From: Methylophaga aminisulfidivorans
GTDB taxonomy: Bacteria > Pseudomonadota > Gammaproteobacteria > Nitrosococcales > Methylophagaceae
Length of the DNA: 40,000 bases
Direction: 5' to 3'
Assembly (NCBI GenBank): GCA_011052985.1
Contig: DRHY01000046.1
Span: 4,396-44,395, forward strand
The stretch's first letter is position 1. The number at the start of each line of letters is the position of its first letter. Position numbers and translations under genes: made by a program. Shown one piece after another: positions 10,043 through 39,654 of the stretch. The notes under the pieces are model-generated. The model was given only the letters and a program-made list of their open reading frames with translations. It made no database searches and was not told where the DNA came from.

Positions 10043-11182
10043 TTAAAAGACGCTTAGGTCGATGATTGATTTATGGATGGCACCTGCTCGGAATATACGA
10101 ACTCGAATAGGGGCTGATAGTCTGATATTTCTATCCTCATCAGATATAACTAATATATCTTCAGGCTTGGTTAGGATTTCATAACCTACAGTGTATTTCT
10201 CAATACCATCATCGGGGTCTGTATAGATGCGTGGCCCCATGTAGCCGTTAGTGATGAATTTCTGGCAATCATCATCAACAGATGCAAGAATTACTGCCTG
10301 TCCTCGTGGCGTTTGTCTCAGTTTTGTTGGGACGTTTGCAATGGTGTTGTATGTGCTTACCGTCAACGTATTAATAAACGCATCAAGGTTAACCACATCA
10401 TCAATATATTCTCCATATGTGCTGTGCGTGATGGTATTTAACCAGCGACCAACATCAGATGAGCCTTGCAATTCAACTGTGGCATAAAATGTCGCTTTCT
10501 TGGTGTCAGCTTCCATTGCAGCAATTTCACTGCCTTTTAAATCCTCAGAAGCTACGCCGGGTGATTTTTTAAACTCACCTGTAATGGTGGAGTTTTCGCC
10601 GCTGTAATTGACGGCTGCAAAATGTTTAGCTAGTGCCGTTCCTGCGTAAGCATCAGTAGCATGTGCCGCTGTATAAGCATGACGATAACCAAGCGTGGTT
10701 AATTTCGTGGCAATATCGCCTGTTTCGTTTTGGTCACGGATAGCGGTAACGGCTGTGCCTGTTTGATTATCAACAAACATACTTGCATTTTCTTCACACC
10801 ATGCAGCAGCCAGCAACACCTCTGCTTCGGCTGCGTATGTGTCAGCAGTGAAAAGCGTCCAGTACCACCAGAAGCTATCACGGGCCTTGTTAAGTGTTGC
10901 TGTTAATGTTGCATCGGCTGGATCGGTAACCCAGATATTAATTTGACGCATCTTAGGTGTTCCGCCTAGCCATTTAGCGGCGGCTTTATATGTGTCAGTG
11001 GTATCTGCATAGTCAGCTGCCACTTCAGTAATATCAAAGTAAGTTTTGTATGTGTCTTTTGTTAGCGCCCCGATTTCTGTGGAGTCTGCAAACAATGTAG
11101 CTGATGCAAAATTGGCAAAGCCCAAACCAGCAGGGCTGATTCTCGCATTTACCTGAATGATTCTGTCTGCTGGATAAGCCAT
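10043..11182 (-). CDS. Tail sheath protein (DUF3383-like)
   Basis: 379 aa, upstream of tube, chaperone and tape measure. N-terminus MAYPADRIIQVNARISPAGLG. Confidence 0.65.
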   Translation of the reverse strand: MAYPADRIIQVNARISPAGLGFANFASATLFADSTEIGALTKDTYKTYFDITEVAADYADTTDTYKAAAKWLGGTPKMRQINIWVTDPADATLTATLNKARDSFWWYWTLFTADTYAAEAEVLLAAAWCEENASMFVDNQTGTAVTAIRDQNETGDIATKLTTLGYRHAYTAAHATDAYAGTALAKHFAAVNYSGENSTITGEFKKSPGVASEDLKGSEIAAMEADTKKATFYATVELQGSSDVGRWLNTITHSTYGEYIDDVVNLDAFINTLTVSTYNTIANVPTKLRQTPRGQAVILASVDDDCQKFITNGYMGPRIYTDPDDGIEKYTVGYEILTKPEDILVISDEDRNIRLSAPIRVRIFRAGAIHKSIIDLSVF

Positions 11183-12942: not shown

Positions 12943-13158
12943 TTAATCTTTAGGCTCTTCTGATACTTTTGCTTTTTGTTCAGTTGCTTTAGTTACTGAA
13001 ACTAAATCACCTTTCTCAATAAGCTCTTTAACATGATCAAGCTTTGCCATTTTTGCTGTGATTTCCACGGCTGGGTTATCACCAGGTAAAACTTTTACTG
13101 ATTTTTCGCCTTGACTGTTAATGCCGATGATTCGGGCTGTATTGTTTTTAACAAGCAT
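12943..13158 (-). CDS. Hypothetical small head-associated protein (71 aa)
   Basis: ORF track 12943..13170. ATG at 13158 is preceded by GGAG. The track start lies inside the T-run of the capsid terminator. Confidence 0.5.
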   Translation of the reverse strand: MLVKNNTARIIGINSQGEKSVKVLPGDNPAVEITAKMAKLDHVKELIEKGDLVSVTKATEQKAKVSEEPKD

Positions 13159-26453: not shown

Positions 26454-27135
26454 GGGGTGTCTCCCTTTGGCGCTTTTGCGCGATCATCGTGTCGTACTTT
26501 TCACGTAGCTTTTTGCCTGACTGAACCACTGAGGCCCAAAACATATCGCCGCTATACATCCAGTCGATAATGCATATGAGTTGGGCTTCTGTTCGCTCAT
26601 CAATGCGAATAGCCCGCTCAATGTCTTTTACCCAACCTTTCGGTTTGCTCTTGTTGTCAGGATTTTGAGAAAGTATTTTTTTGTGTAGGTAGAGAGCAAC
26701 GCGATCGGCTTCTGTCCCTTCAGGTTCATTTACTGGTTCAGAAGAGTGACTGGTTCTGGGTGCAGAATTTTCACTAGGGGGTGGTGCAATATTTTCACTA
26801 CCCCCATGCAAATCCTGCACTATGGGTGGTGCAGAATTTTCACTAGGGGGTGGTGCAATATTTTCACTACCTTCCAAGGTTATTTTGTAAAAGTTTGAGC
26901 TGTTACCTTTTGGGGTTTTTCTCTCATATTTTTTTAAAAAACCTTGAGCTTCTAATGCACTGATATGAGCGATAACACTACGCTTTGACATTTCACATTG
27001 ATCTGCTATGTGTCTGTACGATGGGTAACAAGTACCATCCTTACCAGCAATATCAGCCATACAAACGAGCACAAGCTTTCTGGTAGCACTTCCTACCTTC
27101 ATATCAAGAACCTGTGCGGTAAGCTTCATACTCAC
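26290..27135 (-). CDS. Replication initiator O-like protein (N-terminal wHTH; contains the origin iterons)
   Basis: N-terminus LVLVCMADIAGKDGTCYPSYRHIADQCEMSKRSVIAHISALEAQGFL. The internal duplicated peptide GSENIAPPPSENSAP is encoded by the iterons. The gene sits upstream of the P-like gene. Confidence 0.7.
   Translation of the reverse strand: MSMKLTAQVLDMKVGSATRKLVLVCMADIAGKDGTCYPSYRHIADQCEMSKRSVIAHISALEAQGFLKKYERKTPKGNSSNFYKITLEGSENIAPPPSENSAPPIVQDLHGGSENIAPPPSENSAPRTSHSSEPVNEPEGTEADRVALYLHKKILSQNPDNKSKPKGWVKDIERAIRIDERTEAQLICIIDWMYSGDMFWASVVQSGKKLREKYDTMIAQKRQRETPHETHQQGNQLRGAAAQSASFHEDLKLFAKGVDSETVQQDAGDIYAPLDKRVSNY
26759..26869. repeat. Four 18-bp iterons (putative origin of replication)
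   Basis: GGTGCAGAATTTTCACTA at 26759 and 26828; GGTGCAATATTTTCACTA at 26783 and 26852. Spacing is 24/45/24 bp. An A/T-rich tract follows (26871-26950). Confidence 0.7.
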
Positions 27136-28007: not shown

Positions 28008-28742
28008 ATGAATAAGAAGAAGCCGTTATCAAAAGAACAACTTGAAGAGTGCGAAAAAGCTCACGCTATTTTTTTGTCGAAAAAAAAGGAGTTGGGTTTA
28101 AGTCAAAGAAAGATTGCGGATAAAGCAGATATATCGGCAACAGCCGTTAATTACTACTTCAAAGGCGTGAACCCTCTAAACCTGCCGTTCGCTTTGGTGT
28201 TGTCTGAAATGCTTGGTGTAAAAATCAGTGAATTCAGCCCAAGATTGGCTGATGAAGCTAGTAAAATATCAAAGGCCACATCTGAAGCATCTAAAGATAA
28301 TTCAAATATAAGTGAGTCACCAATAACACCATCAGAGAGAGAAACGCCTCTTATTTCATGGGTGAATGCTGGGAGTTTTTGCGAATCGCCCGATCAATTT
28401 CATCCTGGTGATGCAGAGGACTGGATACCAGTTAAACCGAGAGGATCAAGCGACAAGATATATGCACTTAAGGTAAAGGGCGATTCAATGACAAGCCCAT
28501 ACCCTAATAGTATTAGCTACCCTAACGGCTGGATTATAATTGTCGATCCTGAGCAAGAGGTGCTTGTTGGTATGTGCGGAATATTCAAGCAGCCATCAGA
28601 TGAACTTGCTACTTTCAAGCAACTGACCAGTGATGCAGGAAAGTTGTATCTAAAGCCATTAAACCCCCAATTCCCCATGATAGAGGTAGAAGAAGGTATG
28701 CGCGTCTGTGGGAGAGTGATCGGGCTTTACTTGGATGTGTAG
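28008..28742 (+). CDS. cI: CI-type repressor (XRE HTH plus S24 LexA-like autopeptidase)
   Basis: N-terminal HTH (LSQRKIADKADISATAVNYYFKG). The C-terminus has the Ser nucleophile in KGDSM and Lys in LKPLN. Divergent from cro. Confidence 0.9.
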   Translation: MNKKKPLSKEQLEECEKAHAIFLSKKKELGLSQRKIADKADISATAVNYYFKGVNPLNLPFALVLSEMLGVKISEFSPRLADEASKISKATSEASKDNSNISESPITPSERETPLISWVNAGSFCESPDQFHPGDAEDWIPVKPRGSSDKIYALKVKGDSMTSPYPNSISYPNGWIIIVDPEQEVLVGMCGIFKQPSDELATFKQLTSDAGKLYLKPLNPQFPMIEVEEGMRVCGRVIGLYLDV

Positions 28743-28799: not shown

Positions 28800-29744
28800 A
28801 TGAGAGTAAGTTATTTTGCCCACTGTTTGAGAAATATTGAGTCAGGGGAAAACGTCAAGTTCGACCTTGGTTCGTTTGCTTCAGCATTCTGTAAATTTGA
28901 AAACCCTATATTCAAAAATACATTCACCCATAACGGGGAAAACGTCTATTTACTTCACAACTCAGGTGATGTTTACCTCTTTATAATGACAAAAAGCAAC
29001 GAAGTAATTAGGAAGATCAACACTGATAATCTGAGCGTTAGTGAGATTAACGACTTGCTAGCTAAAGATGAGCAGCTAGGTTTTGCATCTTATATCCTGA
29101 TAAAAGAAAATCATTTCGGTTATTCCTCGACTTTAATGGCGCCAAGAATAGATTGTTTTAATGATTTTATTGAATTTCTTTTGTCTAAAATTGGTGTAAA
29201 AGATTACCAATTCCGTACGCAAGCATTGCTCTATCAGGCAACAAAGGCAGACGTCTTATCGATGAATTATTTAGGTAGGACCACAATTGATTTAGCGAAA
29301 CACAGTAATGTCGTTAAAAACTTTTTATCTGAATTAAATGTGACAGATGCTGATATACTAGAACTTGATGGAATTGAGATAAAAATTAAGCCGAAACAGC
29401 GAAAAAACATCAAGCCTGTTGTTGATAAGGTTATTCAGAACCTGCCAGATGATGGTGTTGAAAAAATGATCGTTAAAGCTAAGCATCAGGATGCTGGTGA
29501 GGCACTTAAGGATCTATATTTAATTGGTCAAGGCTCAATATCTGACTCTATAGATAAAAGTAAAGAGGCAAAAATTCCAGATCATTTGGAATCTAAGCGT
29601 AAACAAAATAAAATTGTTGATGAGAGGCTTGCGGAGTATATAGAACATGAACAGCTCACAGAAAAGAACATTGAAGTTGTTCAACGTTTTAGTGATGCAG
29701 AGTCCTGGTCCGCTCGTTTTCCTATGCTATCTAACACTGATTAA
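28800..29744 (+). CDS. RexA-like exclusion protein
   Basis: By-eye collinear blocks with lambda RexA: YLFIMTKSNEVIRKIN / FLFTKTNDKSLVQKIN; LAKDEQLGFASY / LADDESLGFPSF; YLGRTTIDL / FIGRTTVKV; IKIKPKQRKNIKPV / IVIKPKFKRDIKKV. Directly downstream of cI. Confidence 0.75.
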   Translation: MRVSYFAHCLRNIESGENVKFDLGSFASAFCKFENPIFKNTFTHNGENVYLLHNSGDVYLFIMTKSNEVIRKINTDNLSVSEINDLLAKDEQLGFASYILIKENHFGYSSTLMAPRIDCFNDFIEFLLSKIGVKDYQFRTQALLYQATKADVLSMNYLGRTTIDLAKHSNVVKNFLSELNVTDADILELDGIEIKIKPKQRKNIKPVVDKVIQNLPDDGVEKMIVKAKHQDAGEALKDLYLIGQGSISDSIDKSKEAKIPDHLESKRKQNKIVDERLAEYIEHEQLTEKNIEVVQRFSDAESWSARFPMLSNTD

Positions 29745-30117
29745 GTATTTCCCTCAATACTCGATTAGCATTTATCCTCAAAAGCAAACTGTAGCTGTGA
29801 TTTTGGCAACATTTGCTTTTACTATGCTGGGCTTTCTTGCTGCAGTAATTGCTTTAATGTTTACCGCAACAAAATCACAAGCTTTTAATATGTATAATAA
29901 GCGAGGATATTTAGAAACATTCTTTTTCGTTTACTACATGGTTATTATTTCTTTAATAATCACATTCTTGCTATCTATTTTCTCATTAGCTGTCAGTTTT
30001 GAGCCATGGTTGCTGAGGGTTGCTGTTATGTCGACAATAAACAACCTAGTCCAGATCGTTCTTGTAACGTTTATCATAGTTAATATGGTGGACAAGGCCA
30101 TATCCAAAAATGAATAA
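29647..30117 (+). CDS. RexB-like polytopic membrane protein
   Basis: About 4 hydrophobic segments. The block FTMLGFLAAVIALMFTATKSQAFNMYNKRGYLETFFFVYY compares with lambda RexB GTMIAILIAALTFLIGSRTRRLAKIREYGYMTSVVIVYA. The start is uncertain (29647 or 29695) and overlaps the end of the rexA-like gene. Confidence 0.7.
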   Translation: MNSSQKRTLKLFNVLVMQSPGPLVFLCYLTLIKYFPQYSISIYPQKQTVAVILATFAFTMLGFLAAVIALMFTATKSQAFNMYNKRGYLETFFFVYYMVIISLIITFLLSIFSLAVSFEPWLLRVAVMSTINNLVQIVLVTFIIVNMVDKAISKNE

Positions 30118-31858: not shown

Positions 31859-32561
31859 TCAGGTTGTTGTTACTCCTTCAACTGTTTTATCTAAAGCGTA
31901 TGAAAGTGGTGCAAGTATTGAGCATATGACTCAACTACTTGAGCTTCAGGAACGTTTTGAAAAGCGTGAGGCAGAAAAGGCATTTAATTTGTCATTGGCT
32001 GCTTTCAAAGCTAACCCACCAAAAATATTAAAAGATAGACACGTTTCATTTGACACTCAAAAAGGTAGAACTGAATACGATCATGCCTCTTTAGCTAACG
32101 TTGTTTACACGGTAAGTGAAGGTTTATCTGAGCATGGACTTAGTGCTTCATGGGAAACATTACAAGACTCAGGCTTGGTTAGCGTTACATGCATATTAGG
32201 ACACGAGTTAGGGCATGAAAAACGCACTACGCTGAGCGCCTCACCTGACGCTTCAGGAGGAAAAAATAATATTCAGGCTATTGGCTCAACTGTTTCATAT
32301 TTACAGAGATATACCCTGCTTTCAATTACTGGCCTAGCTACTCACGACCAAGATAATGATGCTGCTAGTAAGTCTTCATTTATTACATTTGAGCAGGCTC
32401 AAGAAATTGAAAATCTACTGAAAGAGTCAGGCGGTGATATTCAATCATTTGTCGAATATTTCAACGTCTCAAGTATCAGTGAGCTTCCAGCGGATAAGTA
32501 CAAAACCATTATTACATCAATAAAGGCTAAAGCAGCTAAGAAAAAGGAAGCTGTAAAATGA
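31809..32561 (+). CDS. erf: ERF-family single-strand annealing protein
   Basis: YDHASLANVV...GL...HELGHE...NIQAIGSTVSYLQRYTLLSITGL...DNDA matches the ERF family pattern. The start is taken at the MMMM run. Confidence 0.75.
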   Translation: MMMMEAQKQEIMTQQNNQVVVTPSTVLSKAYESGASIEHMTQLLELQERFEKREAEKAFNLSLAAFKANPPKILKDRHVSFDTQKGRTEYDHASLANVVYTVSEGLSEHGLSASWETLQDSGLVSVTCILGHELGHEKRTTLSASPDASGGKNNIQAIGSTVSYLQRYTLLSITGLATHDQDNDAASKSSFITFEQAQEIENLLKESGGDIQSFVEYFNVSSISELPADKYKTIITSIKAKAAKKKEAVK

Positions 32562-33157
32562 TCATTTATAACTCTGAGCAAGGTAGTGAGCAATGGTTTA
32601 TTGACCGCAACGGAATACCTACAGCGTCTGGAGTTACAAAGGTTTTAGCGAAAGGCAAAGGAAAGACTAAATACACATACATGATGGAGCTATTAGCTGA
32701 CAGGTTAGGGCTAGATTCTGATTCTAAGTTTCAAGGTAACGCTGACACCGAAAGAGGCCATGAACACGAACCTGAAGCAAGGACTCTGTACGGTTTTGAA
32801 AATGATGTAGCGCCAAAGTTAGTGGGCTTTATAACCGACGACAATAGAACGGCTGGCGCAAGCCCAGATTCATTAATTGGCGACAGTGGATTACTGGAAA
32901 TTAAATCCAAGAAAGCACATATACACCTGCCAATACTCTTGAGTGGAAAGGTTCCAACAGAGCATATACCGCAAGTTCAAATGCAGTTGTGGATTGCAGA
33001 ACGTGAATGGTGCGACTTCGTTTCATATTGCCCTGGATTAAAGCTAGAAACAATCCGTGTTTACCGAGACGAAGTAAAAATAAAAGAAATAGCAAAAGCC
33101 GTTGATGAATTTAATAACGAGCTTAACGAGTTAGAGCAAAAGATTAGGAGTATGTAA
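32558..33157 (+). CDS. YqaJ-like recombination exonuclease (PD-(D/E)XK)
   Basis: GSEQWF..R.G..TAS..., ASPDSLIGDSGLLEIKSKK and QVQMQLW motifs. Adjacent to the annealase gene. Confidence 0.8.
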   Translation: MIIYNSEQGSEQWFIDRNGIPTASGVTKVLAKGKGKTKYTYMMELLADRLGLDSDSKFQGNADTERGHEHEPEARTLYGFENDVAPKLVGFITDDNRTAGASPDSLIGDSGLLEIKSKKAHIHLPILLSGKVPTEHIPQVQMQLWIAEREWCDFVSYCPGLKLETIRVYRDEVKIKEIAKAVDEFNNELNELEQKIRSM

Positions 33158-34161
33158 TGAGTGAAATAACAGTAATTGAAATAAAGCAGGAAAACGCATT
33201 ATCAATCTTCACTGCTGAAGAAGGACTTGACCCATATTTAAAGAAAATTGAGCAGGAAGCTAGATCACTTGTCCCTGACATGTCTACAAAGAAAGGCCGT
33301 GATCAGATAGCTTCAAATGCTTACAAGGTAAGACAGTCAAAATCAGCATTGGACAAGGTAGGAAAAGCTCTGGTTGATAAATTAAAAGAGCAGCCAAAGC
33401 TTGTTGATGCTGAGCGTAAAAGAATGCGTGAATTCTTAGACAAGCTCGCTGATGAGGTAAGAAAACCTCTTGATGAGTTTGAGCAAAAAGAAGCTGATCG
33501 GATTAAGGCTTTGCAAGATCGCGTTTTCTTTTTCTCATCCTGCGTTATGGATAACGGTGAAGAATCAGAAAAGATAAAAGCTGTTATTGAAACTATTGAG
33601 CTTGAAAAAGTAGATGAAACATATGAGGAGTTTGAAGCAGAGGCTCACAGAGAAAAGGCTGCATGCCTCGACAGATTGAAATCATCACTTGATAAACAGA
33701 TTAAACATGAAGCCGAGCAAGCAGAGCTTGAAAAACTAAGAAAAGAAGCTGCTGAACGTGAACAGAAAGAACGTGAAGAACGCATTGCACGAGAAGCGGA
33801 AGAGAGAGCCAGAAAACAAGCTGAAGAAGCAGCACAAAAAGAACGCCAAGACGCTATTAATCGTGAGAACGAATTGAAGCTTGCAGCTGAACGTGCTGAA
33901 CGTGAAAAACTGGAGGCTGAGCAAAGAGCTGTAAATGCAGCCAAAGAGACCGAAGAAAGATTAAAGTGGGAAGCTGCTGAAAAAGCCAGAACTGAAGCTG
34001 AAGAGCAGGCGCGGCGTGAGCGAAATAAAAAGCATAAAACAAAAATCAACAATGATGCTTTAAGCGCCCTGCTGACTTCCGGAATCAGCGAAGACCAAGG
34101 AAAAACAATTGTCACAATGATAGCTAAGGGCGAAATCCCTAACGTTAGCATCAGTTATTAA
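33157..34161 (+). CDS. Charged coiled-coil protein (DUF1351-like)
   Basis: 334 aa with a long E/R/K/A-rich helical core. Lies between the exonuclease and SSB genes. Confidence 0.45.
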   Translation: MSEITVIEIKQENALSIFTAEEGLDPYLKKIEQEARSLVPDMSTKKGRDQIASNAYKVRQSKSALDKVGKALVDKLKEQPKLVDAERKRMREFLDKLADEVRKPLDEFEQKEADRIKALQDRVFFFSSCVMDNGEESEKIKAVIETIELEKVDETYEEFEAEAHREKAACLDRLKSSLDKQIKHEAEQAELEKLRKEAAEREQKEREERIAREAEERARKQAEEAAQKERQDAINRENELKLAAERAEREKLEAEQRAVNAAKETEERLKWEAAEKARTEAEEQARRERNKKHKTKINNDALSALLTSGISEDQGKTIVTMIAKGEIPNVSISY

Positions 34162-34170
34162 GGAAAGATT

Positions 34171-34662
34171 ATGTCTGTAAATAAAGTAATTCTCGTTGGT
34201 CGATTAGGTGCTGAGCCTGAGTCGAGAGACTTTCCTAACGGCGGCTCAATCTGCAACCTACGCATAGCAACAAGCGAAAGCTGGAAAGACCGTCAAACAG
34301 GCGAACGCCAAGAACGCACTGAATGGCACCGTGTCGTGCTACGCAACAAACTCGGCGAGATAGCACAGCAGTACCTACATAAAGGCTCACAAGTCTACAT
34401 CGAAGGCCGGATTCAAACGAGAAAATGGCAAAACCAACAAGGCCAAGACCAATACACCACTGAGATAGTGGGCAATGAAATGACGATGCTGGATAGTAGA
34501 CCACAAAGTAATGATGACCCAGCAACTCATGCGTCAGGAAATCAATCTCAGCATAATCCGACTTATCAACCAGCACAGCAGCAAGCTAAGCCAGCATCAC
34601 CATCTGCTGGGCCTGATTATGGTGGTGATGAGCAGTATTACGATGATTCAATTCCTTTCTAG
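34171..34662 (+). CDS. ssb: Single-stranded DNA-binding protein
   Basis: OB-fold N-terminus ([15 protein letters not shown]...TEWHRVV...) with a Q/P-rich linker and the acidic tip DDSIPF. Confidence 0.9.
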
Positions 34663-34671
34663 GAGATAACC

Positions 34672-35097
34672 ATGAAGCACTGCAATACATGCGATACCAG
34701 TAAACAAAATGATGATTTTCACAAGAGGGCTGCATCAATTGATGGTCTAGCAGCGCGGTGCAAATCATGCCAAAGCGAGTACGACAAAACTAGAGCGAAT
34801 AAGCCTCACAGAATTATGGCGAGACGCGAATACGCTAGGACTGAAGCAGGTAAACAGGCAGCAACAAAAGCAAAGGTTTCATATATTCAAAGGAACCCAA
34901 CTAAGCGACAAGCTCACAATCAAGTAGCCAATGCTCTTCGTGATGGTCGATTAGAAAAACAACCGTGTGAAGTCTGCGGAGAAAAAGAAGTACATGCACA
35001 CCACGATGATTATGCAAAACCGCTAGATGTTAGATGGCTTTGCAATAAGCATCACAACGAATGGCACCGAATACACGGTGAAGCAGCTAACGGATAA
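34672..35097 (+). CDS. HNH-motif zinc-binding protein
   Basis: N-terminal CNTC...CKSC. C-terminal CEVCG...VHAHHDDYAKPLDVRWLCNKHHNEWH. Confidence 0.6.
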   Translation: MKHCNTCDTSKQNDDFHKRAASIDGLAARCKSCQSEYDKTRANKPHRIMARREYARTEAGKQAATKAKVSYIQRNPTKRQAHNQVANALRDGRLEKQPCEVCGEKEVHAHHDDYAKPLDVRWLCNKHHNEWHRIHGEAANG

Positions 35098-35158
35098 CCA
35101 CACAGCCCCTTAAATGGGGCTTAAAGGTGCCGGAAGGTGAAACTAAATAAAGGAATTT

Positions 35159-35431
35159 ATGATGAATGAACAAGCAGCGATGCCAAAGTACAAATGCCAT
35201 AAAGAGGTTCACGCTATAAAAATAGCAGGGGCAGAGGTTAACAAGGACGGCTCAGTGACTATAGCGCCACATGATGAATGGTTTGCCGTTTTTACAACAG
35301 AAGCGAGTTATGGGGAACGATTCAAAGGTAATGACTCTGACCCGGGTTATTACGTTATTTATGAGGGTGGATATAAGTCATGGAGTCCTTCAAAAGAATT
35401 TGAGTCAGGTTACACGCCCATCCCAACTTAA
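35159..35431 (+). CDS. Hypothetical protein
   Basis: ORF track, 90 aa. Confidence 0.5.
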   Translation: MMNEQAAMPKYKCHKEVHAIKIAGAEVNKDGSVTIAPHDEWFAVFTTEASYGERFKGNDSDPGYYVIYEGGYKSWSPSKEFESGYTPIPT

Positions 35432-35570
35432 CGCATCAAATAACAGCTTCTATGAGGTTGTTATCTAATGCGGAGTTAGTGCAAGCAAAACGACAGTGGG
35501 AGCCTGTGCCGGAGACGTAACCGGACACCGCATTACTGGTTGCTAGTCCAGTTGAAAAAACTAGCTTGTA

Positions 35571-35715
35571 TTTGAGTGGTGGTTGAATAGCAAAACGGTT
35601 TGCTAGGGAATAGCTACTGAGCGAAATACTAGGTAAGTAGCTCAGATAGTGCGCGTATCCCGACTTCTATCGCAGGAGTGTATGCGGTTCGAATCCGTGA
35701 CAGCCATCACTCAAA
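35571..35715 (+). ncRNA. Candidate tRNA-like structured RNA (not a canonical cloverleaf)
   Basis: A 15-bp closing helix (35571-85 with 35701-15, 2 G:U pairs) encloses hairpins at 35588-605 and 35612-42 plus a T-arm-like hairpin TGCGG-TTCGAAT-CCGTG (35683-99). TAGCTCAG and CTTCTA motifs are also present. The strand is assumed from tRNA-like polarity. Confidence 0.4.
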
Positions 35716-35748
35716 TGCAAATAGCAGACTTAATAACGGAGAAATGGG

Positions 35749-35952
35749 ATGAGTGAATACAAGCCACCACAACATGTAATGGATGAATGGCGCAGACAAT
35801 GTGATTGCTGCCAGATGTGCAGCGAGGTTCCTTGTGACGGAGTGATGGCAGGTGATTTTTGCGACAACTTATGTGATTGCGATGATGAGTACGAAGACTA
35901 CCGCTATTGCGACAACTGCGGCGGAGACCTATGCGATTGCGACATGTTATGA
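35749..35952 (+). CDS. Cys/Asp-rich small protein (67 aa, 12 Cys)
   Basis: GGAG lies 9 nt upstream. Repeated CDxxCDCD motifs. Confidence 0.5.
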   Translation: MSEYKPPQHVMDEWRRQCDCCQMCSEVPCDGVMAGDFCDNLCDCDDEYEDYRYCDNCGGDLCDCDML

Positions 35953-36185
35953 ACCAAACAGGCTACTGCACCACATGCAAGCAACCTAACTGCCCTACTC
36001 CTTCCATTAGGAATAGAGAGGACGGCAACTGCTCACATTGGACAGGTGGCAAAGAACATAACGAGCTAAACGAACATGAAGAATGCGAACAGTGCGGCTC
36101 AATAATGACAACACACCATGGTAATTATCCGTTGCGTTGTCGGTTTTGTGAATATCAACTGGAGACAAGCAATGACCTTAGTTAG
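35949..36185 (+). CDS. Cys-rich zinc-ribbon-like small protein (78 aa)
   Basis: ATGA overlap with the previous ORF. CTTC...C...CEQCG...CRFC. Confidence 0.5.
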   Translation: MNQTGYCTTCKQPNCPTPSIRNREDGNCSHWTGGKEHNELNEHEECEQCGSIMTTHHGNYPLRCRFCEYQLETSNDLS

Positions 36186-36348
36186 AGGTAAAAAATACAA
36201 ATTCACCAGCCAACCCGAAATCATCAAGTTTATGGGTAAGGAAAGAGGCTGGAACCAGTTTGAGCTTGATGGTCATCAAGGCGTTTGGTGTGAATTGCTC
36301 GATGAAGACTTGTGGATGATTGAAGAAGTAACAGAAGTCCAATGCTAA
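36172..36348 (+). CDS. Hypothetical small protein (58 aa)
   Basis: GGAG lies 7 nt upstream of the ATG at 36172. The ORF track lists a longer version (36118..36348). Confidence 0.45.
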   Translation: MTLVRGKKYKFTSQPEIIKFMGKERGWNQFELDGHQGVWCELLDEDLWMIEEVTEVQC

Positions 36349-36521
36349 TCCTCAGCCGAAAAACGGATACAAGCTTAATCATCGGTGACGATGTGAAGAT
36401 AACTATTAAAAAAGTGCATGTCAGGAACCAGTAAGTCACGTTTGAAATTGATGCGCCGGATGAGATTGAAGAGGTACTTTCCAAAATGGAAACAACCACT
36501 ATAGATGAATTGGAGGTGTGA
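36342..36521 (+). pseudogene. CsrA-like ORF interrupted by a single in-frame TAA (codon 31)
   Basis: Own translation: MLILSRKTDTSLIIGDDVKITIKKVHVRNQ*VTFEIDAPDEIEEVLSKMETTTIDELEV*. E. coli CsrA for comparison: [48 protein letters not shown]. Confidence 0.5.
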
Positions 36522-36990
36522 GGTGACAGATAAACCTTTATATATTTTTGATATAGACGGAACTCTCGCAAATATTGAGCACAGGTTGCACTTTATAAAA
36601 TCAGAAAAGCAGGATTGGGAGTCGTTTAATAAAGAATGTTTTTATGATCAACCCTACAAAGACATTTGCTTTCTAGCAATGAGCTTAATGATGAGCAGCG
36701 ATGTGTACTTCTTCACTGGAAGGATGGATAAACCAGAAGACGAGGTCAGGATTAACACATGGAAATGGCTTGAAAGAAACCTTAATTCATACATTGATGA
36801 AGAGAGATTGGTGATGAGGGCCAACAGTGATTATCGTCCTGACGATATCGTTAAAGAGGAAATGTATAAAAACATGCTTCAAGAGGATAAAGACCGCCTT
36901 ATATGTGTTTTTGATGACCGGCAGCGTGTAGTCGATATGTGGCGTTCAATTGGCGTTAGATGCCTACAAGTAAAAGAAGGTGATTATTAA
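36505..36990 (+). CDS. HAD-family polynucleotide 3'-phosphatase-like protein (T4 Pnk C-terminal domain-like; no kinase domain)
   Basis: Motif I is IFDIDGTLA. The C-terminus SDYRPDDIVKEEMYKNM...VFDDRQRVVDMWRSIGVRCLQVKEGDY parallels T4 Pnk ...DTRKDDVVKEEIFWKHI...[27 protein letters not shown]. An alternative GTG start at 36523 follows GGAGG. Confidence 0.8.
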   Translation: MNWRCEVTDKPLYIFDIDGTLANIEHRLHFIKSEKQDWESFNKECFYDQPYKDICFLAMSLMMSSDVYFFTGRMDKPEDEVRINTWKWLERNLNSYIDEERLVMRANSDYRPDDIVKEEMYKNMLQEDKDRLICVFDDRQRVVDMWRSIGVRCLQVKEGDY

Positions 36991-37329
36991 ATGACCAAAC
37001 CAACAAAAGAACAGATAGACACTGCTACGGGTGAGCAGCTTAGTGAATGGGTTGCTGTGTGGTGTATGGGATATGAACATGGCGAAAACGGTTTAGGTGA
37101 TAAATGTTATAGGCGTGGCAAAGACTGGATTTACGACTGGCAGCCGCACTTGGAAAATTTAAAAGGAAAGGGTCAGTCGATAGTTTTGGCTGAGAAATTC
37201 GACATGGTGATCCATGCTGCGAAAGGTGCTGTTAACTACGGAAGCTGGTATCACAAAACAGTAAAAGATAATAACTGGCAAATAGCAGCCCTAAAAGCCT
37301 GCCTCTATTCAGTTATAGGAGAAGAATGA
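36991..37329 (+). CDS. Hypothetical protein
   Basis: ORF track, 112 aa, abutting the previous stop. Confidence 0.5.
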   Translation: MTKPTKEQIDTATGEQLSEWVAVWCMGYEHGENGLGDKCYRRGKDWIYDWQPHLENLKGKGQSIVLAEKFDMVIHAAKGAVNYGSWYHKTVKDNNWQIAALKACLYSVIGEE

Positions 37330-37565
37330 TGATTAAATCAATTGAGCTTAAATTTAAATCAGGAAATGATGTGCAGGTTGACCGTGCAATCATCACCCGT
37401 GATGAGTTCATACAGATAAAACAACAAGCCGAAACGATTGAGCGGTTGAAGGCTGCATTAACCAATGTCAAAAACTGCCCTGAATCTGATTTAGCTGCAT
37501 ACGTTAAATCAGTTGACGGCATTGCATGTGAAACATTAACCAAACTAGAGGCAGGTGAGTTATGA
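37326..37565 (+). CDS. Hypothetical protein
   Basis: ORF track, 79 aa, ATGA overlap. Confidence 0.5.
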   Translation: MMIKSIELKFKSGNDVQVDRAIITRDEFIQIKQQAETIERLKAALTNVKNCPESDLAAYVKSVDGIACETLTKLEAGEL

Positions 37566-37930
37566 GTAAATTACCGGAGACATGGAATATGTCAAGAAGC
37601 ATTGCAGATGATATAGCTCGCGAAGGTTATCTTGACTGGGCTGCACATTTGAATGGGGTTATGGATATAGCGGAGGAGTTAGAAGAGCAAAACAAAGCCC
37701 TACAAGCAAAACTATCAAAACTAGGCACACACGTTCTAGCTGATGAACATGAAGAGGCTAAGCGAATTGCTGTGATGAGTAATGATGATGTGGTTAGGGA
37801 GTTGCAGGCTGAGGCTGTTTTAAATGCAATGCATTACGCCGATGAATACGCAAGTACAAAAGATAGTTGGATTGGTGGTATTCAGAAATACTACCGAAAA
37901 CTACGCAACCCAGAACAAGAGAAGGTGTGA
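37562..37930 (+). CDS. Hypothetical protein
   Basis: ORF track, 122 aa, ATGA overlap. Confidence 0.5.
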   Translation: MSKLPETWNMSRSIADDIAREGYLDWAAHLNGVMDIAEELEEQNKALQAKLSKLGTHVLADEHEEAKRIAVMSNDDVVRELQAEAVLNAMHYADEYASTKDSWIGGIQKYYRKLRNPEQEKV

Positions 37931-37932
37931 TT

Positions 37933-38184
37933 ATGAAGTTTATAGATGAAGTTTTATTAAAGGTAAAGACTTATTTCCCAGAAACAAAGCTTATAGAACC
38001 GCGCGTAGGTGCTGGGTGGCGATTAAATATTTATTATAATGGTCATTACTTTATTTATAGATTAGATAAATATAACTACCTAGAAATCAATAATGAAAAT
38101 AGGGTTGATATTATTGATTTAATTGCATCTGATGTGCGTGAAAGCGTTGAGCAAAGATATTCTATGATTGGTAAAGAGTTATGA
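37933..38184 (+). CDS. Hypothetical protein (83 aa)
   Basis: ORF track 37867..38184. The internal ATG at 37933 follows the previous stop by 2 nt. Confidence 0.5.
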   Translation: MKFIDEVLLKVKTYFPETKLIEPRVGAGWRLNIYYNGHYFIYRLDKYNYLEINNENRVDIIDLIASDVRESVEQRYSMIGKEL

Positions 38185-38438
38185 GCCTAATCATTCAAAA
38201 CGAAATAGCAAGCGAATTTCTCACTGACAAGGAAGTGATTGAGCTTACTGGGTTTGAGCAGCGTGGAAAGCAAATTGACTGGCTTATCAATAGACAATGG
38301 GCTTTTAGTGTTTCCGGGAAAAATGAAATTAAAATAAGTCGTTGGTACTCACGCATCAAAATGTCAGGTATAAATATCAATAACGATATCCATGTCAGTG
38401 GTGGCGATCAACTACCTAACTTTAATAAAGCATCATGA
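38181..38438 (+). CDS. DUF4224-like protein, putative excisionase/recombination directionality factor
   Basis: FLTDKEVIELTGFEQRGKQIDWL motif. Immediately upstream of the integrase and overlapping it. Confidence 0.55.
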   Translation: MSLIIQNEIASEFLTDKEVIELTGFEQRGKQIDWLINRQWAFSVSGKNEIKISRWYSRIKMSGININNDIHVSGGDQLPNFNKAS

Positions 38439-39547
38439 CACCTAAACCAAAAACAAAGCATCCAGAGCTACCACCTCGCATGGTTAAGCGCCAATGGAAA
38501 ACGCGTAAGGGGGTGAGTGTAGCTTATTACTACGAGCATCCACGCGATGAGGATGGTAAGCGAGTGCTTGAGTCGTTAGGCACTGACTTTGCCAAGGCCA
38601 AGCAAAAATGGGGAGAGATTGAAGGCGTTAAGGTAGATAAGTATTCAGGCGATACGCTTGGCGCTATCTATCATAAATACATGAAGTGGGCAGAAAACAA
38701 AACGCTTTCCGGGTTATCGCCTAGAACGATTAAAGACCGCAAAAACTATTGGACTCATTTGGAGCCTGTCTTTGCTCATCTGCATATTGATGCATTTAAG
38801 CCAGAGTGGTTTTTGCAGTATTTTGAATCGAGATCATCACAAGTCGGCGCTAAAAAAGAAATCAAGTTTATGTCGGTTATCTTTAACTGGGCCAAGCTTC
38901 GCGGCTTAAGCACGATAGAAAATCCGATCACAGGCACAACCAGGCAATACAAAATTAAAGAACATCGGGATATCCTTATCACTCATACTGAATATAAGGC
39001 TGTACATGACAAGTCAAGGCCGTTTATACAAGACTTAATGGATTTACTGTACATGTCAGGCGCTAGGCCAGATGAGGCGATTAGCTTTAGATTTGCGGAT
39101 GATAAAGGTCATGAGCTTGTCTATCGGATGGGTAAAACCAGAAAGATTAAACGAGTGCAGATTGGGTCTGACTTACGCAAGTTAATTAATAAGCGTAAAA
39201 AGCTGCTGAAGTCATCCAGAGTAACAATGATTAACCCTACTATTCTATTTGATGATAAAGGCCGAAAGCTGACGCTTGGTGGCACAATAAAATACTGGTT
39301 TGGAATAGCGCGTGATGATGCAGAACTAGAAAGACGCTGGCAGCTAAAGGATATACGTCCGTATGCCGCAACTGAGCGATATAGAAAAGAAGGTATTGAG
39401 GCAACACGTAAACTGCTAGGGCACTCAACAGAAGCGCAAACGCGCAGTTACATCAGGGACTATTTAGGGGAGGAAACAGAGTCGCACGAAATGCAAAACA
39501 ATGGCATTATGGCGAAAGTAAAACGTGAGAATGGCGAAAGTAGTTAG
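38435..39547 (+). CDS. int: Tyrosine integrase
   Basis: 370 aa. Catalytic-region motifs: SGARPDEAISF, LKDIRPYAAT, LLGHSTEAQTRSYIRDY. Adjacent to the tRNA 3' end. Confidence 0.9.
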   Translation: MTPKPKTKHPELPPRMVKRQWKTRKGVSVAYYYEHPRDEDGKRVLESLGTDFAKAKQKWGEIEGVKVDKYSGDTLGAIYHKYMKWAENKTLSGLSPRTIKDRKNYWTHLEPVFAHLHIDAFKPEWFLQYFESRSSQVGAKKEIKFMSVIFNWAKLRGLSTIENPITGTTRQYKIKEHRDILITHTEYKAVHDKSRPFIQDLMDLLYMSGARPDEAISFRFADDKGHELVYRMGKTRKIKRVQIGSDLRKLINKRKKLLKSSRVTMINPTILFDDKGRKLTLGGTIKYWFGIARDDAELERRWQLKDIRPYAATERYRKEGIEATRKLLGHSTEAQTRSYIRDYLGEETESHEMQNNGIMAKVKRENGESS

Positions 39548-39577: not shown

Positions 39578-39654
39578 TGGTACGCCCGGCAGGACTCGAA
39601 CCTGCTACCCTCGGCTTAGAAGGCCGATGCTCTATCCGGATGAGCTACGGGCGC
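39578..39654 (-). tRNA. tRNA-Arg (anticodon UCU)
   Basis: Reverse complement: GCGCCCGTAGCTCATCCGGATAGAGCATCGGCCTTCTAAGCCGAGGGTAGCAGGTTCGAGTCCTGCCGGGCGTACCA. It folds as a cloverleaf with anticodon loop CTTCTAA and closely resembles E. coli argU. Confidence 0.9.

Follow-up and report, generated by a model that had tools for sequence, protein, structure and literature searches.

The N-leader and sib hairpins of phage lambda are intercistronic processing signals for RNase III, and phage T4 encodes two small RNAs, species 1 and 2, that present a case similar to a pair of RNAs of phage T5. The early polycistronic mRNA of phage T7 carries five intercistronic RNase III signals, and the idealised substrate of the E. 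coli enzyme is a helix of about 22 bp, or two helical turns (PMC3867540). The two T5 RNAs, RNA1 (144 nt, 10502-10645) and RNA2 (125 nt, 12960-13084; NC_005859), are listed as 'tRNA-like stable RNA with unknown functions'. The element considered here is best classified as a joining of these known kinds, an intercistronic processing-type hairpin that carries a pseudo-tRNA (transfer RNA) or tRNA-like insert. It lies in a 40-kb stretch of Methylophaga aminisulfidivorans DNA (contig DRHY01000046.1), which is the window to which all coordinates refer unless a contig is named. The gene content of the window is that of a lambdoid prophage. The element is found in the early-left operon, where a non-coding gap of 317 nt (35432-35748) separates an open reading frame (ORF) for 90 amino acids (aa), directly 5' of the gap (35159-35431), from a Cys-rich ORF for 67 aa, the first gene 3' of it (35749-35952). 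The gap is a conserved sense-strand RNA region with several hairpins (A, C and B, in 5' to 3' order) and hypervariable apices, and the apex of hairpin B has clear sequence-level signs of tRNA ancestry in both its halves.

Conserved stems and hypervariable apices

A sequence-only reading of this DNA had described positions 35571-35715 as a tRNA-like element closed by a long helix, within a gap that it took to be non-coding and rich in structure. The gap answers to that description on the plus strand, where it folds with a z score of -4.11 and no ORF of at least 30 aa fills 35432-35748. The parts of the element are likewise present: the hairpin at 35588-35605, the pairing within 35612-35642, a T-arm and the closing helix, in which 35571-35585 pairs with 35701-35715 over 15 consecutive positions (G:U at 35579:35707 and 35583:35703). 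The fold of the whole gap lengthens this helix by 5 bp at its outer end to 20 bp with three G:U pairs, and its two strands (35566-35585 and 35701-35720, plus strand) are here called stem B. In the shuffled-sequence control that had been suggested, the 145-nt element reaches -54.2 kcal/mol against -37.1 +/- 3.9 kcal/mol (z = -4.41), with none of 200 shuffles as good. The 115-nt interior alone is no stabler than its shuffles (z = -0.88), and therefore the closing stem is the source of the significance of the fold. A stem of 20 bp with at most three G:U pairs has a chance expectation of about 0.003 per strand in the window, and stem B is the longest clean stem found across it. No terminator-like site was called on the plus strand of the gap, and the 3' flank of stem B reads AAUAGCAGACUUAAU.

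Two relatives, L020 and L033, were found in IMG/VR by anchoring on a 334-aa protein and on the endonuclease of the same operon, with protein identities to the window phage of 84% and 90%. Both retain the flanks of the element: ..AUGUAUUUGAGUGGU.. on the 5' side of the stem, ..AUCACUCAAAUGCA.. on its 3' side and, beyond these, the junction that holds the ribosome-binding site. What lies between the strands differs entirely: the apex measures 115 nt in the window, 64 nt in L020 and 35 nt in L033, and the apices of the two relatives could be aligned neither with that of the window nor with each other (z < 0.7). The long hairpin nevertheless folds in both relatives (z = -4.46 in L020 and -4.41 in L033), with a stem of 20 bp in the window and L020 and of 19 bp in L033, plus a flanking helix of 4-5 bp. 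The outer 15 bp of the stem are conserved and the inner five covary among the three phages through compensatory changes, from GGUUG/CAGCC in the window to AUCUA/UAGAU in L020 and GGCUU/GAGUC in L033. Pairs were counted in composite alignments that were built by hand, with each apex swapped for a GAAA linker; for stem B this gives 98.3% paired cells and four pairs with both partners altered. The earlier proposal that the helix is an acceptor stem does not survive this comparison, for the same stem, with compensatory changes, closes non-tRNA interiors in L020 and L033.

Hairpin C (35542-35565, plus strand) stands directly 5' of hairpin B, with a GCUAG/CUAGC stem, lengthened to 6 bp in the minimum-energy fold (GCUAGU/ACUAGC), and an A-rich loop. 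Its stem in the relatives is GGCAG/CUGCC, so that two of the five pairs are altered on both sides and every cell is paired. For hairpins B and C together 98.7% of cells are paired and six pairs are altered on both sides, which none of 500 shuffles equalled, and all slid registers drop to 28-40% paired. Hairpin A (35432-35472, plus strand; fold z = -5.28) begins right past the stop codon of the 90-aa ORF and is composed of an outer stem, CGCAU/AUGCG, an inner stem of 11 bp, AUAACAGCUUC/GAGGUUGUUAU, and the loop UAU. Counterparts with larger, variable apices are found at 15758-15830 of L020, 6744-6835 of L033 and 1896-1972 of L040, a more distant phage that shares hairpin A, and the size of this apex ranges from 3 nt in the window to about 50 nt in L033. 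In the apex-free composite for hairpin A (window, L020/L033 and L040) 98% of cells are paired and six pairs are altered on both sides. The spacer between hairpins A and C (35473-35541, plus strand) varies among the relatives, although it is kept in L020 from 35529 on (86.5% blastn identity over 35529-35580), and the spacer region is not unusually stable (35473-35565, z = -0.55).

All seven hairpin copies fold better on the plus than on the minus strand, by 0.6 to 15.6 kcal/mol (the largest difference in L033), and their non-Watson-Crick pairs are G:U on the plus strand and hence A:C on the minus strand. At the level of sequence comparison, these substitutions show stems kept by selection on the mRNA strand, with apices that are free to vary. 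Covariation in homologues, which had been named as a test of the tRNA-like element, was thus borne out for stems B, C and A, but the interiors in the relatives are unrelated and without tRNA similarity. Where the homologue of the endonuclease is no more than 71% identical (L042-L053, L083), counterparts of the hairpins are absent, and searches of the relatives against Rfam gave sub-threshold matches of pre-miRNA type only.

Past stem B the conserved junction AAUAGCAGACUUAAUAACGGAGAAAUGGG, followed by AUG (35721-35751, plus strand), supplies the ribosome-binding site, which starts about 18 nt beyond the stem, and the start codon of the 67-aa ORF. A gene-start junction of the form AGCAG(A/G)CTTAAT(AAC)GG(A/G)G...ATG recurs before successive, otherwise unrelated genes in the relatives (16028 and 16257 in L020, 6938 and 7402 in L033, and 35721-35751 in the window). 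Patches of 32-39 nt with 97-100% identity occur at gene starts between the mosaic genomes (L033, L020) and look like boundary sequences that mediate a cassette-like exchange of genes.

tRNA ancestry of the hairpin B apex

The apex that is specific to the window (35586-35700, 115 nt) is tRNA-derived, and its minimum-energy fold is a five-way junction of the closing stem, hairpin 1, a long arm, hairpin 3 and the T-arm, all on the plus strand. Hairpin 1 (35588-35605) is D-arm-like, with a perfect stem of 7 bp that can be read directly from the sequence. The long arm, or hairpin 2 (35606-35661), has a GGGA/UCCC helix around 10 bp formed by GCUACUGAGC and GCUCAG(A)UAGU; it sequesters a GCU triplet and a second D-arm-like motif, UAGCUCAGAUAG, which are paired with each other in the minimum-energy fold. 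An alternative to this 10-bp pairing is the 7-bp helix AGCUACU/AGUAGCU (35612-18 with 35636-42). Hairpin 3 (35663-35679; ACUUCU-AUCGC-AGGAGU, 6 bp) appears in the minimum-energy folds at the position of a variable arm. The T-arm (35683-35699; UGCGG-UUCGAAU-CCGUG) has a 5-bp stem and a perfect consensus T-loop, and adjoins the 3' strand of stem B with one unpaired A (35700) between them. The motif GGTTCGAATCC has a chance expectation of 0.015 in the window and of 2e-5 within the apex, and is found exactly only at this T-arm in the window, with a near variant in the host tRNA-Arg.

Similarity to tRNAs was scored against a panel of 34 sequences, 28 of them tRNAs (24 from T5, 2 from the host, 2 stray) and six of them T5 small RNAs. 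The best-of-panel similarity of the window apex has a z score of 6.6, compared with 0.0 and 0.5 for the apices of L020 and L033 and -0.5 for the rest of the gap. The 3' part (35636-35712) resembles positions 6-74 of a class I tRNA and includes UAGCUCAG, CUUCUA, the T-arm and the acceptor 3' strand, whereas the 5' part (35581-35632) resembles the 5' two-thirds of a class II tRNA, tRNA-Ser(GCU). For the class I-like segment (z = 7.7) the host tRNA-Arg(UCU) gives a local alignment score of 42, with shuffles at 17.9 +/- 3.3; the top score of the panel belongs to an unrelated tRNA-Val from soil, which is collinear with the segment from U8 to the acceptor 3' strand and reaches 48, or 55 with the 3' strand included. 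In the 5' part GAATAGCAAAACGGT-TTGC aligns with T5 tRNA-Ser3 GAATAGCATAACGGTATTGC (local score 35-37, z = 5.1), and the alignment of GAAUAGCAAAACGGU-UUGC with T5 tRNA-Ser(GCU) GAAUAGCAUAACGGUAUUGC identifies hairpin 1 with the D-arm of that tRNA: 18 of the 19 aligned bases match those of the working T5 D-arm, plus one gap of a single base. The likeness continues 3' of hairpin 1, where UAGCUAC (35611-17) aligns with the T5 anticodon loop UUGCUAA, the GCU triplet taking the anticodon position, and CGAAAUACUAG aligns with part of the variable arm of T5 tRNA-Ser(GCU). A further stretch, GCGAAAUACUAGGUAAGUAGCUCA, can be aligned across the junction of the tandem Ser-Ile genes of T5, over the 3' end of one, the spacer and the 5' end of the other. 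Since the apex has two D-arm-like segments and one T-arm, its sequence looks as though two adjacent phage tRNA genes had been fused by a deletion. An apparent likeness of the 5' half to an inverted duplicate of the 3' half was rejected, being accounted for by the helices alone.

The insert is not a decoding tRNA and lacks both a usable anticodon arm and a usable acceptor end. The loop UAGCUAC of the Ser-like part has A in place of U33 and no adjacent 3' stem strand, the CUUCUAU region has no matching 5-bp anticodon stem, and the strand on the T-arm side, where an acceptor stem would be sought, pairs with a strand of the 20-bp hairpin that is common to relatives without tRNA content. Over the window ARAGORN and Rfam at its gathering threshold report only the two host tRNAs, tRNA-Arg and tRNA-Pro, and no phage tRNA genes. 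The Rfam tRNA model RF00005 has no match at E <= 10 in 601 nt or 106 nt of the element region, and no Rfam family at all matches 35300-35900 at that cutoff. Relaxed runs of ARAGORN return nothing down to 80% thresholds and implausible calls alone at 60% or with an 80-nt intron, a 'repaired' element from which 35592-35641 had been deleted still gives no tRNA call above 80% thresholds, and no transfer-messenger RNA (tmRNA) is found at default or 80% thresholds. The consensus T-arm and the similarity to tRNA that had been noticed earlier are genuine and significant, and the failure to fold or score as a standard cloverleaf holds as well; the relaxed tRNA and Rfam covariance checks then recommended agree that this is no standard tRNA, and they found no tRNA, tmRNA or Rfam family.

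Direct searches at the DNA level recovered no copies but those of this phage itself, all identical. A blastn search of the gap against GenBank phages and complete E. coli genomes had no match, and neither had exact or gapped DNA patterns of the T-arm and D-like region in IMG/VR. The pattern of the D-arm, where its matches in IMG/VR were checked, occurs in recognisable tRNA genes solely in T5-like contigs, and an intact parent tRNA was not found there outside T5-like phages. A 19-mer from the element has three chance matches in the genomes of 185,579 species (GTDB), none with a tRNA, and a 20-mer in metagenomes finds this phage and an unrelated soil hairpin only. The latter is an identical small structure in four contigs taken as soil (L015 572-591, L017 1048-1067, L018 3053-3072 and L019 883-902, from Ga0210401, Ga0210408, Ga0210409 and Ga0307475), with an 8-bp stem around a hairpin that resembles a T-arm (GCGG-UUCGAAU-CCGU); next come a hairpin of terminator type and a run of U. 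It is not called a tRNA by ARAGORN and is unrelated to the phage element beyond the common 20-mer. Within the window the element is single-copy, and the search for an antisense target there gave nothing above chance.

Proposed roles: processing hairpin or functional RNA

The favoured reading, in which confidence is about evenly balanced, is that stem B is an RNase III-type processing or stability hairpin of the early-left mRNA and that its apex holds a decayed fragment of tRNA genes. A helix of about two turns between early-operon cistrons matches the geometry of RNase III substrates, and for this reason a processing or stability role of hairpin B is most likely, as judged by geometry and location, and hairpin A is probably a signal of the same sort. 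Stem B has 20 bp where two turns of double-stranded RNA, by the rule for the E. coli enzyme (PMC3867540), take about 20-22 bp, and its pairing bears the marks of plus-strand selection expected of an RNase III signal, with four double changes and the plus strand favoured in every copy. It is proposed that hairpin B, and probably also A, separates the message of the recombination genes from that of the downstream accessory genes. The permissive apex of B would have received some 115-120 nt from tRNA genes, the insert being a chimera that links the 5' two-thirds of a T5-type tRNA-Ser(GCU) with the greater part of a second tRNA, of class I. Most likely it is a decayed passenger that has an intact T-arm and a D-arm-like hairpin. 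Cutting of stem B would release the insert with half of the stem as a tRNA-like RNA of about 130-140 nt, which might still be recognised by RNase P and tRNA-modifying enzymes.

Several points weigh against this reading. Cleavage by RNase III is only deduced, from substrate rules of the E. coli enzyme that may not be those of the host, and the covariation comes from three sequences only for B and C and from three distinct ones for A, all from close relatives and in hand-built alignments. The perfect T-loop and near-intact D-arm may be the product of selection for a tRNA 'elbow' and not of recent decay, and since the four contigs with the phage show no difference in the element (100% identity), conservation of the insert cannot be judged.

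Selection for the elbow is the core of an explanation that we regard as unlikely but deserving of attention, namely that the insert has a function as an expanded tRNA-like stable RNA. It would be freed by RNase III and/or RNase P, with hairpin B as the scaffold for its expression and processing, and would act through the GG of its D-loop and its T-loop, perhaps as a sponge or decoy that occupies tRNA-binding enzymes or tRNA-targeting defence nucleases. A literature search on phage tRNA-like decoys and T5 stable RNAs found nothing directly relevant. The T-arm has kept a perfect consensus and the D-arm stays near its counterpart in a working T5 tRNA-Ser while the remaining arms have been remodelled, the five-way junction has class II tRNA topology with tRNA-like linker lengths, the GCU triplet is masked within a 10-bp helix, and the layout is that of T5 RNA1 and RNA2. 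Yet the insert occurs in one phage only, the hairpin of the relatives does without it, the apex is no stabler than shuffles, the two D-arm-like segments suggest a deletion fusion of two tRNA genes, and the contigs offer no sequence variants by which selection could be tested. The T4 Pnkp-type phosphatase that is encoded 0.8 kb downstream would suit such an RNA, and its earlier identification is confirmed (HAD_PNKP, stand-alone, 36505-36990), but the functional link that its location had hinted at found no support: a scan of ten ORFs in 32558-37930, covering the small ORFs in 35907-36348 in part, revealed neither an RNA ligase nor a kinase as partner (ORFs 37326-37565 and 38181-38438 were compared with Pfam only), and no phosphatase gene is listed for L039, a relative that bears the hairpin. 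A bolder form of this explanation, which seems improbable, makes hairpin B a dedicated expression and processing scaffold of the phage clade with exchangeable small-RNA cargos. The cargo here would be a purpose-built elbow mimic that combines a T5-type Ser(GCU) D-arm with a consensus T-arm and hides the GCU triplet in a helix; it would titrate either a host factor that binds tRNA or an anti-phage nuclease directed at tRNA.

The stem could also be a feature of the DNA, such as a palindromic recombination or insertion site, an element like a miniature inverted-repeat transposable element (MITE) with 20-bp terminal inverted repeats, or an antisense terminator of the minus strand, for which the chances are poorer still. 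Its two arms are identical as inverted repeats at 17 of 20 positions, the apices turn over by insertion and deletion, the short junctions conserved between mosaics suggest recombination hot spots, and the A6 run 5' of the stem on the plus strand becomes a U6 run past it on the minus strand. All imperfect pairs, however, are G:U on the plus strand and A:C on the minus strand, which folds the more weakly in seven of seven copies; the element has no second copy in the window, and the 19-mer and 20-mer revealed no other genuine copies in genomes or metagenomes. Nor was any minus-strand gene found to the right of the element in the window. Least probable of all is the idea of a phage gene for tRNA-Arg(UCU), divergent or decayed, with the closing helix as its acceptor stem; the sequences of the relatives largely refute it, since the helix is conserved and covaries where there is no tRNA-like content. 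What had suggested it is the CUUCUA motif, together with the alignment to the host tRNA-Arg(UCU) and the integration of the phage at that gene. The resemblance is not specific: the unrelated tRNA-Val outscores tRNA-Arg (48 to 55 against 42), the 5' part resembles tRNA-Ser(GCU), under which reading the supposed Arg(UCU)-like anticodon loop motif, CGACTTCTATCG, is a variable-arm-like hairpin, and the T-arm of the element is unlike that of the tRNA fragment at attP. ARAGORN is silent on it down to 80% thresholds, as is RF00005 at E <= 10. Of the three possibilities that had been left open at the outset, a relic fragment of a tRNA is nearest the mark; the tRNA-like reading got the ancestry right but the acceptor stem and the isoacceptor wrong.

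If the favoured reading, a processing hairpin with a decayed insert, is true, the element is ordinary phage mRNA architecture that carries a fossil tRNA fragment, and it provides a worked example of how a strong fold z score and a T-loop can mimic a novel tRNA-like RNA. For lambdoid phages of the Methylophaga type it also contributes a small structured motif between genes that is supported by covariation, and it shows hairpin apices as permissive landing sites for foreign sequence. Should the insert be a stable tRNA-like RNA, it would carry more weight and would offer a case in a temperate phage and a simple operon, with easier genetics than the T5 and T4 RNAs of unknown function.

Prophage setting and gene order

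The annotated genes of the region begin with cI (28008-28742), followed by RexA, an ERF recombinase, a YqaJ exonuclease and SSB, in that order, and by an endonuclease VII/HNH-like protein (34672-35097). The 90-aa ORF, the gap, the 67-aa ORF, the phosphatase and the integrase (38435-39547) complete the series. As anchors for finding further relatives, the phosphatase and the 90-aa ORF led to distant phages only, without the element, and a search of 5.8 billion proteins with the 67-aa ORF yielded one homologue, whose contig of 658 bp has no element upstream. A homologue of the endonuclease with 90% identity is named by NCBI as an unclassified Methylophaga protein. In some relatives a CsrA homologue is found in the early-left operon (L039 5003-5182, L040 2934-3113 and L083 635-832), in some directly 3' of the endonuclease gene. 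Next to cI, the stretch 28800-30117 of this marine prophage, apparently of the Methylophaga type, holds a gene of the RexA family (Pfam E = 3e-61) and, after it, an ORF in the position of RexB. A perfect direct repeat of 44 nt (26759-26802 and 26828-26871) lies within the gene of an HTH_36 replication protein and probably represents origin iterons.

Just past the integrase gene ARAGORN places tRNA-Arg(tct) and tRNA-Pro(tgg) on the minus strand, and L033 is a prophage at the same tRNA-Arg/tRNA-Pro site, with a host flank of 85% identity throughout. The earlier view of tRNA-Arg(UCU), whose gene adjoins that of the integrase, as the att site is supported by an attP-form contig, L013, on which the phage has the part of tRNA-Arg that starts at about position 29 and includes the 3' end. 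On this contig, from sample 3300005253 of the Joint Genome Institute (JGI), the integrase is followed by the tRNA-Arg 3' fragment, which ends at window position 39626, and then by lysis genes. L013 is also without window 37417-37775, which means that excised and deletion variants are both present in the sample. In the JGI gene table a minus-strand 'gene' with a product of 34 residues covers nearly the whole gap (L013 886-1157, window 35436-35707); as no minus-strand ORF of that size exists there, the entry looks like an annotation artefact. The phage is present in a marine sediment metagenome (ENA record ERZ940452, PRJNA259156), presumably that of Loki's Castle, and also in two samples among the JGI metagenomes.

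Comparison with known systems

Like the early RNase III sites of T7, stem B is an intercistronic hairpin of about two turns of double-stranded RNA, here 20 bp and a flanking helix, on the sense strand of a phage early operon. With intercistronic RNase III signals in general it shares the conserved stem, the free apex and the generic long-hairpin shape, to which the sub-threshold Rfam matches, confined to pre-miRNA families, also correspond. The T7 sites differ in having an internal loop between two stems of about 10 bp and small apices, whereas the stem is continuous here and its apex measures up to 115 nt, with tRNA-derived sequence. There is no sequence similarity between the two; the likeness is one of geometry, and cleavage is deduced for stem B.

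With canonical tRNAs and their pseudogenes the insert has in common the T-arm consensus, a D-arm-like hairpin with GG, the motif UAGCUCAG and collinearity with positions 6-74. It differs from them in its two D-arm-like segments, in having no 5-bp anticodon stem with a 7-nt loop and no CCA or discriminator context, and in that its nearest acceptor pairing is offset by unpaired A residues. The C4 RNAs of phages P1 and P7 and the CI RNA of P4, regulatory RNAs that RNase P processes from tRNA-like precursors, and the bacterial Y RNA YrlA, a tRNA mimic, also contain tRNA-like modules within phage or bacterial non-coding RNAs and are recognised by tRNA-processing enzymes. The tRNA-like domain of YrlA is circularly permuted relative to its long stem, whereas the parts of the insert follow the normal order of a tRNA. 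The insert is set apart from the whole group by the lack of any Rfam family at E <= 10 in 35300-35900 and of an antisense target in the window.

The T5 small RNAs lie within tRNA clusters of a lytic phage and are closed by acceptor-like stems of 7-8 bp, while the insert has no tRNA cluster around it in the window and sits by itself within the 20-bp hairpin of an mRNA, in a lambdoid phage that is temperate. Similarity of sequence between them is weak and mostly confined to the T-arm (scores 31-39). In architecture they agree closely, for RNA1, RNA2 and the insert share the same order of parts (a closing stem, a D-like hairpin, a long extra arm, a small hairpin and a T-arm that adjoins the 3' strand of the closing stem) and a size of 125-145 nt, and standard tools call none of them a tRNA. 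In its expanded fold, closing stem and T-arm the insert thus falls in with the tRNA-like RNAs of the T5 and T4 type, which measure 120-145 nt.

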